Shown: piece by piece, positions 1-1,310 of the stretch
Position numbering within the stretch: position 1 is the stretch's first letter
Layout of the letters: every line of letters starts with the position of its first letter
Source of the DNA: a virus
Taxonomy: Duplodnaviria > Heunggongvirae > Uroviricota > Caudoviricetes
Direction: 5' to 3' (one strand)
Virus record (IMG/VR): IMGVR_UViG_2671180296_000011
Span: 1-23,719 of that record
DNA: 23,719 nucleotides
Notes under the pieces: generated by a model
The model's database searches: none
What the model saw: only the letters and a program-made list of their open reading frames with translations
Told to the model about the DNA's origin: nothing
Position numbers and translations under genes: made by a program

Positions 1-433
1 ATGTTTAGACACGTGAAAAAACTTCAATATACAGTACGTGTAAGTGAGCCAAACCCAGGCTTGGCTAATCTACTTTTAGAACAATTCGGCGGGCCACAGG
101 GTGAGCTTGCAGCAGCATGCCGATACTTCACTCAAGGCTTAAGTGATGAAGATGCAGGCCGAAGGGATATGCTGATGGACATAGCAACAGAAGAACTAAG
201 TCATCTCGAAATTATTGGTTCTCTTGTTGGTATGCTCAACAAAGGTGCAAAAGGAGCACTTGCTGAAGGAACTGAGAATGAAGCTGAGCTTTACCGTTCC
301 TTAACTCAAAATGGCAATGACAGCCATATAACTTCTCTCCTCTACGGAGGAGGCCCGGCATTAACTAATTCAGCTGGAGTACCCTGGACTGCAGCTTATG
401 TTGATACTATTGGCGAAGTCACGGCCGATCTTC
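1..433 (+). pseudogene. Mn-containing catalase, 5' fragment truncated by IS1 insertion
   Basis: N-terminus MFRHVKKLQYTVRVSEPNPGLANLLLEQFGGPQGELAAACRYFTQG matches the Mn-catalase (CotJC/YjqC-type) N-terminal pattern from memory. The ORF runs into the IS1 left end and takes its stop codon (436-438) from IS1 sequence. About 145 codons of an expected ~280-300. Confidence 0.65.
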
Positions 434-488
434 GGTGATGCTGCCAACTTACTGATTTAGTGTATGATGGTGTTTTTGAGGTGCTCCA

Positions 489-764
489 GTGGCTTCTGTT
501 TCTATCAGCTGTCCCTCCTGTTCAGCTACTGACGGGGTGGTGCGTAACGGCAAAAGCACTGCCGGACATCAGCGCTATCTCTGCTCTCACTGCCGTAAAA
601 CATGGCAACTGCAGTTCACTTACACCGCTTCTCAACCCGGTACGCACCAGAAAATCATTGATATGGCCATGAATGGCGTTGGATGCCGGGCAACCGCCCG
701 CATTATGGGCGTTGGCCTCAACACGATTTTCCGCCATTTAAAAAACTCAGGCCGCAGTCGGTAA
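489..764 (+). CDS. insA: IS1 InsA (transposition inhibitor / N-terminal part of InsAB' transposase)
   Basis: 91-aa product [43 protein letters not shown]... with zinc-finger CxxC pairs and HTH, as in IS1 InsA. Confidence 0.9.
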
Positions 765-1186
765 CCTCGCGCATACAGCCGGGCAGTGACGTCATCGTCT
801 GCGCGGAAATGGACGAACAGTGGGGATACGTCGGGGCTAAATCGCGCCAGCGCTGGCTGTTTTACGCGTATGACAGGCTCCGGAAGACGGTTGTTGCGCA
901 CGTATTCGGTGAACGCACTATGGCGACGCTGGGGCGTCTTATGAGCCTGCTGTCACCCTTTGACGTGGTGATATGGATGACGGATGGCTGGCCGCTGTAT
1001 GAATCCCGCCTGAAGGGAAAGCTGCACGTAATCAGCAAGCGATATACGCAGCGAATTGAGCGGCATAACCTGAATCTGAGGCAGCACCTGGCACGGCTGG
1101 GACGGAAGTCGCTGTCGTTCTCAAAATCGGTGGAGCTGCATGACAAAGTCATCGGGCATTATCTGAACATAAAACACTATCAATAA
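683..1186 (+). CDS. insB: IS1 InsB reading frame (expressed as InsAB' fusion by -1 frameshift)
   Basis: 167-aa frame [16 protein letters not shown]...[21 protein letters not shown]...HYLNIKHYQ is IS1 InsB. It overlaps the insA 3' end in the -1 frame. Confidence 0.9.
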
Positions 1187-1310
1187 GTTGGAGTCATTAC
1201 CCGTTTTTGATTATCCCCGCACACTCGCGCAGAGGAGTCTCCCTGTCGGGCTGCGGTCTCTGTTAATGCGGAAATACGGCGACAATACCGCGCATGGATA
1301 ATAAGGTCGC

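Follow-up and report, generated by a model that had tools for sequence, protein, structure and literature searches.

The 23,719-nucleotide (nt) stretch analyzed here (the window: positions 1 to 23,719 of IMG/VR record IMGVR_UViG_2671180296_000011) contains a copy of the insertion sequence (IS) IS1 that lies between a truncated Mn-catalase gene and the lysis genes of a lambdoid prophage. The source contig is LFZI01000022.1, from assembly GCA_001264195.1 of Escherichia coli FE95160. This prophage, which occupies ydfJ (the Qin site) of the strain, has very probably lost ~25 kb by an internal IS1-associated deletion. An earlier note on the window had read the IS1 as the trace of a deletion or an inversion by which the structural late genes were lost and prophage DNA became fused to a chromosomal locus. 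The deletion is borne out, in that ~25 kb is absent relative to intact prophages and the flanks are collinear with them. The other two parts of that proposal fall away: relative to intact prophages the flanks have changed neither their order nor their orientation, which speaks against an inversion, and the Mn-catalase cluster is the distal cargo of the same prophage, inside the attachment-site (att) core copies in ydfJ, and not a chromosomal locus.

A complete IS1 without a target-site duplication

The joint is made up of the following features, given by window position and strand.

1 to 433, plus strand: the 5' 433 nt, of 891, of an Mn-catalase gene (katN type), 99.8 to 100% identical to intact 891-nt E. 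coli genes
425 to 433, no strand assigned: left flank 9-mer ccgatcttc, which runs on as in the intact catalase sequence
434 to 1201, plus strand: complete IS1 of 768 bp, with 100% full-length identity to annotated IS1B-family copies
434 to 456, plus strand: IS1 left terminal inverted repeat, matching the right repeat at 18 of 23 positions
489 to 764, plus strand: insA (Pfam Zn_ribbon_InsA, HTH_Tnp_IS1)
683 to 1186, plus strand: insB' frame with the DDE transposase domain (Pfam DDE_Tnp_IS1, E = 2e-78)
740 to 746, plus strand: A6C programmed -1 frameshift motif leading from insA to insB', as read from the sequence
1179 to 1201, minus strand: IS1 right terminal inverted repeat, matching the left repeat at 18 of 23 positions
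1202 to 1210, no strand assigned: right flank 9-mer cgtttttga, the start of the kept phage late-region DNA, which is 100% identical to intact phages from 1202 to 2400

The interval of 425 to 1210 that the earlier note assigned to this feature corresponds to the IS1 at 434 to 1201 plus 9 bp on each side. The element has the length of IS1 (~768 bp), imperfect terminal repeats of ~23 bp (GGTGATGCTGCCAACTTACTGAT...), the insA and insB' frames with the A6C motif, and both the InsA and DDE_Tnp_IS1 domains. Over its 768 bp it is 100% identical to many copies annotated as "IS1-like element IS1B family transposase," and identical copies elsewhere carry the annotation "programmed frameshift." IS1 was found in 4,951 of 5,426 complete E. 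coli genomes, and the identical 768-bp block was recovered in five other contexts. In a small sample that was not chosen systematically, all five chromosomal copies of the identical IS1 from other E. coli strains (L023 to L027) lacked a duplication, and most of them adjoin genes annotated as truncated.

On its left side the IS1 truncates the Mn-catalase gene, as had been claimed, with the cut falling after nt 433 of 891. The remaining open reading frame (ORF), at 1 to 438, encodes KatN residues 1 to 145 of 296 and ends at a TGA within the left end of IS1. Positions 1 to 144 of the 284-position Pfam Mn_catalase profile remain, so the domain is incomplete and the gene is a fragment. The 145-residue product is presumably inactive. 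On the other side, the element adjoins the prophage lysis module (Rz, Rz1, lysozyme, and holin), again as first reported. The right flank starts 109 nt downstream of a 74-amino-acid (aa) late ORF and 357 nt downstream of Rz.

The two flanking 9-mers are unrelated, in agreement with the reported lack of a target-site duplication, and the sole ambiguity in placing the boundary is G434, a single base pair that could be either a G of the catalase gene or the first base of IS1. The earlier note had allowed that a duplication might appear with slightly different boundaries. None emerged when the boundaries were shifted: the two 31-nt flank windows (+/-25 nt) share no k-mer of 5 or longer, and the observation therefore stands. 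As a positive control, the same boundary definition was applied to an IS1 that lies in late-region DNA of the related E18 prophage (L030); it is flanked by a 9-bp duplication without mismatches, CATGCAGGC.

Both flanks belong to one prophage in ydfJ

FE95160 is a bovine O2:H25 hybrid of Shiga toxin-producing and enterotoxigenic E. coli (STEC/ETEC) that carries an Stx1a phage at ybhC/ybhB (PMC4551483). The FE95160 locus that we retrieved is identical to the window across their overlap, and it reads rspR-ydfZ-ydfI-ydfJ'-(112-aa ORF)-KGG-DUF892-DUF892-catalase'-IS1-lysis-Q-replication-immunity-exonuclease-xis-int-'ydfJ-rspB-rspA-ynfA. As in a lambdoid prophage integrated at the Qin site, the tyrosine integrase adjoins 'ydfJ-rspB, with the N-terminal fragment of ydfJ sitting between int and rspB, and an att core is repeated at both prophage ends. 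The core, GAAATCCAT(A/G)AATTCA, falls in ydfJ codons ~28 to 30, and its copies lie ~2.06 kb left of the window and ~45 nt past the int stop codon (L021, reverse complement, ~3806; L010, ~11335). Because these copies bracket the region, the catalase cluster lies inside the prophage.

The earlier note had suggested a comparison with an intact Mn-catalase gene and an intact prophage, and E. coli 55989 provides both, with the two flanks in one prophage. The 6.3 kb to the left of IS1 is collinear with 55989 at 98.0% identity, up to the base at which IS1 starts. In the same orientation, 55989 then has the intact catalase, tfaQ, tail fiber, lom, J, tail, capsid/protease, portal, terminase, lysis, Q, replication, immunity, dicB, exonuclease, xis, and int genes, followed by rspB, with ~24.6 kb between catalase nt 434 and the equivalent of window position 1202. 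The genes are laid out alike in strain Z1323HEC0477, whose xis-int segment matches that of the window at 98.3% identity. With its flanks this far apart in 55989 and no direct duplication of 8 to 9 bp around it, the IS1 does not have the makings of a simple transpositional insertion.

On the right, window positions 1202 to 2400 match intact phages, among them the Stx1a phage of strain 08-00022, at 100% identity. In the intact phages the bases before the equivalent of position 1202 are ...GGTGTGTAT and not IS1, and farther to the left lie YlcI/YnfO, cos, Nu1, and the genes for the large terminase and the portal. None of the called genes of the window matched a capsid, portal, terminase, or tail family, and the earlier remark that the window holds no head or tail genes is thus upheld. 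The cos sequence, GGGCGGCGACCT, is likewise absent from the window and is present in intact relatives (L001, L011); because it is absent, the remnant cannot be packaged. As aligned with these relatives, the loss is read as one contiguous block made up of the 3' 458 nt of the catalase gene, tfa, the tail fiber, tail, head, portal, and terminase genes, Nu1, cos, and YlcI/YnfO. Since both flanks derive from one prophage and are still arranged and oriented as in its undeleted relatives, the event was a deletion within that prophage, and neither an inversion nor a fusion to a chromosomal locus.

The assignment of the catalase genes to the phage agrees with their distribution elsewhere. Intact catalase copies are present in 382 complete E. 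coli genomes, and in 348 of these, O157:H7 included, the catalase is followed directly by a tail fiber assembly gene (tfa). In the source prophage it is preceded by KGG, DUF892, and DUF892 genes. The KGG-DUF892-DUF892-catalase module was also observed beside ybhB-bioABFCD-uvrB, at a distance of ~290 bp from an attR of the lambda type (core TTAGTATAAAAAAGC, P arm), in a Logan contig from SRR22877726 (L005, 7728 to 8118). Lambdoid phages with different integration sites thus carry the module. In enterohemorrhagic E. coli (EHEC), katN (Z1921) and yciGFE-like genes lie on the cryptic prophage CP-933X (PMC5363993). Because the cluster neighbors tail fiber genes in intact relatives, adjoins attR, and is found on CP-933X, we regard it as phage cargo at the tail fiber end of lambdoid prophages.

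Routes to the deletion and competing explanations

The joint has the properties of an IS-associated deletion: both flanks are in native order and orientation, and the breakpoints fall exactly at the intact IS1 termini. The single intact IS1 that is left marks precisely where the deletion closed, and for this reason its flanks are unrelated to each other. Two routes could have produced this arrangement. In the first, an IS1 already present at one of the junctions would have attacked a target in the same molecule, as in the adjacent deletions of IS1 that are said to be classical (reportedly Reif and Saedler, 1975, and Turlan and Chandler, 1995). In the second, recombination may have taken place between an IS1 in katN and a directly oriented copy downstream of Rz. 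The two routes appear about equally likely, and they are not separable because no parental allele turned up and the IS1 is identical to a common variant. For the latter reason, a chimera could not be recognized as such, and the sequence of the element is uninformative on IS-IS recombination.

The points that weigh against a deletion of this kind concern its ancestor. A parental allele would have IS1 in katN with a CCGATCTTC duplication or IS1 downstream of Rz with a CGTTTTTGA duplication, and neither was found in 5,426 complete E. coli genomes, Joint Genome Institute (JGI) metagenomes, or GTDB representatives. The queries were composed of the IS1 right end, CCGATCTTC, and the catalase continuation in one case and of phage DNA, CGTTTTTGA, and the IS1 left end in the other, with a variable gap of 0 to 14 nt allowed for the JGI metagenomes and GTDB representatives; the search of the E. 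coli genomes gave only spurious partial matches. The actual katN'-IS1 and IS1-late-region junctions were likewise absent elsewhere in the complete E. coli genomes, the metagenomes, and the GTDB representatives. Moreover, the deletion is deduced from mosaic relatives, of which the best gives 61% coverage at 95% identity, and not from a direct ancestor. Finally, our analysis of FE95160 covers the prophage locus only, and another copy of the missing DNA could lie at a different place in that genome.

An alternative to these two routes is that the IS1 was captured in one step at the break of an IS-independent deletion, without staggered cuts made by the transposase. Such a capture has been proposed for an IS5 and an IS481 event, and its end product would look identical to the joint seen here, but the same study explains most cases in which a duplication is lacking by adjacent deletions or by recombination between IS copies (PMC11708052). 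Both breakpoints also lie exactly at intact IS1 termini, as joining by a transposase predicts, and nothing specific favors capture. We consider it improbable.

An IS-mediated inversion also predicts the absence of a duplication, and one Logan contig at first seemed to place the truncated catalase by ybhB/bio at att-lambda, as if the IS1 were an inversion or translocation breakpoint that joins the prophage to an unrelated chromosomal locus. However, the catalase cluster adjoins ydfJ' and int adjoins 'ydfJ-rspB, in one prophage with native order and orientation, and what stands at the ends of the Logan contigs is intact catalase sequence (..CTTCGTT) and not IS1. The two flanks do not stem from different loci, and neither is inverted with respect to the other; this holds for the locus itself, and the remainder of the genome was not scanned for a reciprocal junction. 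A breakpoint of this kind is thus highly improbable.

A related candidate, in which prophages of att-lambda and of the Qin site had been joined through IS1, was drawn from five contigs (L005 to L009) that matched the 145-aa truncated catalase, one of which (L005) lies at ybhB/bio. It was rejected, as all five end in intact catalase (..CTTCGT/T) and had been picked for breaking at that codon, and the real flank is ydfJ. An exact look-up of a truncated protein can return contigs that merely end at that codon and so mimic shared IS junctions.

There is also very little chance that the joint is an assembly artefact in which two IS1 copies, with ~25 kb between them, were collapsed into one. The assembly is a draft of 43 contigs, and repeats are classic places for mis-joins. 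FE95160 was sequenced on a PacBio RS with pre-assembled reads of <3.5 kb discarded, and its authors report that an NcoI optical map bore out the assembly (PMC4551483). Reads of >3.5 kb easily span a 768-bp IS1, and a collapse of 25 kb should have shown on that map, which was reported to agree. A simple insertion of IS1 followed by mutational loss of its duplication has nothing in its favor beyond the presence of the IS1 and is refuted, as the 9-mers are dissimilar and the flanks lie ~25 kb apart in intact prophages and are contiguous in no relative, leaving it practically no chance.

Genes kept by the remnant

The part of the prophage that survives to the right of the deletion is collinear with the intact relatives. 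Its principal features are as follows.

1202 to 23719, no strand assigned: retained prophage part with the lysis genes, tRNAs, methylase, Q, RusA, replication, immunity, dicB, exonuclease, xis, and int (22424 to 23719), collinear with 55989 and Z1323HEC0477
1311 to 1535, minus strand: conserved 74-aa late-region ORF, the last phage gene retained before the break; it is annotated in intact relatives, where YlcI/YnfO, cos, Nu1, and terminase follow
1559 to 2026, minus strand: Rz spanin (Pfam Phage_lysis), with an embedded Rz1 at 1621 to 1806 that is called in relatives
2505 to 3038, minus strand: phage lysozyme (Pfam Phage_lysozyme)
4136 to 4351, minus strand: class II holin, a variant seen only in FE95160 and in one Logan contig (ERR10854065)

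The holin, lysozyme, Rz, methylase, and Q ORFs have the same lengths as in intact relatives, and the lysis module (1202 to 4739) shares 99.4 to 100% identity with its counterpart in Stx1a phages, for example in that of strain 08-00022. In that strain, a divergent IS1-family element lies between the lysozyme gene and a neighboring small ORF (L001, 7989 to 8754; equivalent to window positions ~3182 to 3189), where it has an 8-bp duplication, CATAAATA; the element is absent from the window. The gap between Q and the holin, which is the stx site in Stx1a phages, here holds tRNA-Arg(TCT) at 5678 to 5754 and tRNA-Met(CAT) at 5856 to 5931, along with a DUF3927 protein (4912 to 5076), a TerB-family protein (5073 to 5504), and a 352-aa DNA methylase (5972 to 7030).

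In a collection of 15 billion proteins, the variants of the holin (4136 to 4351), TerB-family protein (5073 to 5504), methylase (5972 to 7030), and integrase (22424 to 23719) were each found in one long contig, to which Logan ERR10854065 is added for the holin. Judged by these sequences, the prophage mosaic so far appears to be specific to strain FE95160. An isochorismatase-family gene (12207 to 12791, plus strand) lies on the opposite strand in the early region, near hok- and rem-like genes, and is probably another cargo gene.

Consequences for the prophage and the catalase gene

With cos, terminase, head, and tail genes gone, the FE95160 prophage is defective and can neither make nor fill particles. 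It still keeps int and xis, immunity, replication, Q, and the full lysis cassette. The katN-type Mn-catalase gene of FE95160 is a pseudogene; its EHEC homologue encodes an antioxidant effector secreted by the type VI secretion system. In annotation, the catalase cluster should be treated as prophage cargo and not as a chromosomal locus, and more generally, an IS without a duplication signals deletion or recombination. Prophage decay associated with IS1 is an already known and ordinary kind of event.

The FE95160 prophage and the resident Stx1a phage share near-identical late DNA and therefore could recombine. We give slim odds to the notions that the remnant, on induction, lyses the cell and lets toxin out without forming particles, or that it recombines with the resident Stx1a phage and so reshuffles the late region of that phage, just as we do to a joint made by one-step IS capture.

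Comparison with known systems

As a member of the IS1 family, the window element is the same as IS1B copies in length, repeats, frames, motif, and sequence, and it differs solely in its context, which lacks a target duplication of 8 to 9 bp. The catalase gene is that of EHEC KatN (Z1921) and of the Salmonella yciGFE-katN operon, and here it likewise follows KGG and two DUF892 genes and is prophage borne. The window copy differs in encoding only residues 1 to 145 of 296, with the C-terminal half of the Mn_catalase domain gone.

The cryptic lambdoid prophages at ydfJ/rspB, namely, Qin of K-12 and the intact relatives in 55989 and Z1323HEC0477, share with the FE95160 prophage their site, their gene order, and dicB, ydfD, exonuclease, xis, and int, and their integrase and excisionase DNA is 98.3 to 98.6% identical to that of the window. 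Compared with these site-mates, the late region of the window is mosaic: its lysis module is near-identical to that of Stx1a phages but is not accompanied by stx, and the whole morphogenesis block is gone.

The joint itself resembles classical IS-mediated adjacent or IS-IS deletions in having one intact IS, no duplication, and flanks collinear with the undeleted arrangement. It differs from them in that the parental state was not observed, so either junction may be the original one. A parallel is offered by an IS1-truncated prophage of E. coli 14EC007 (L029). As in the window, an IS1 that lacks a duplication sits a short way downstream of the lysis genes, and the genes for packaging and the head have been lost. 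There the IS1 (L029, 4003 to 4770) joins a truncated tape-measure gene to YlcI/YnfO. With breakpoints in the tape-measure gene and at YlcI/YnfO, the 14EC007 deletion is an independent event, and that prophage, unlike the one in FE95160, has kept tail genes.
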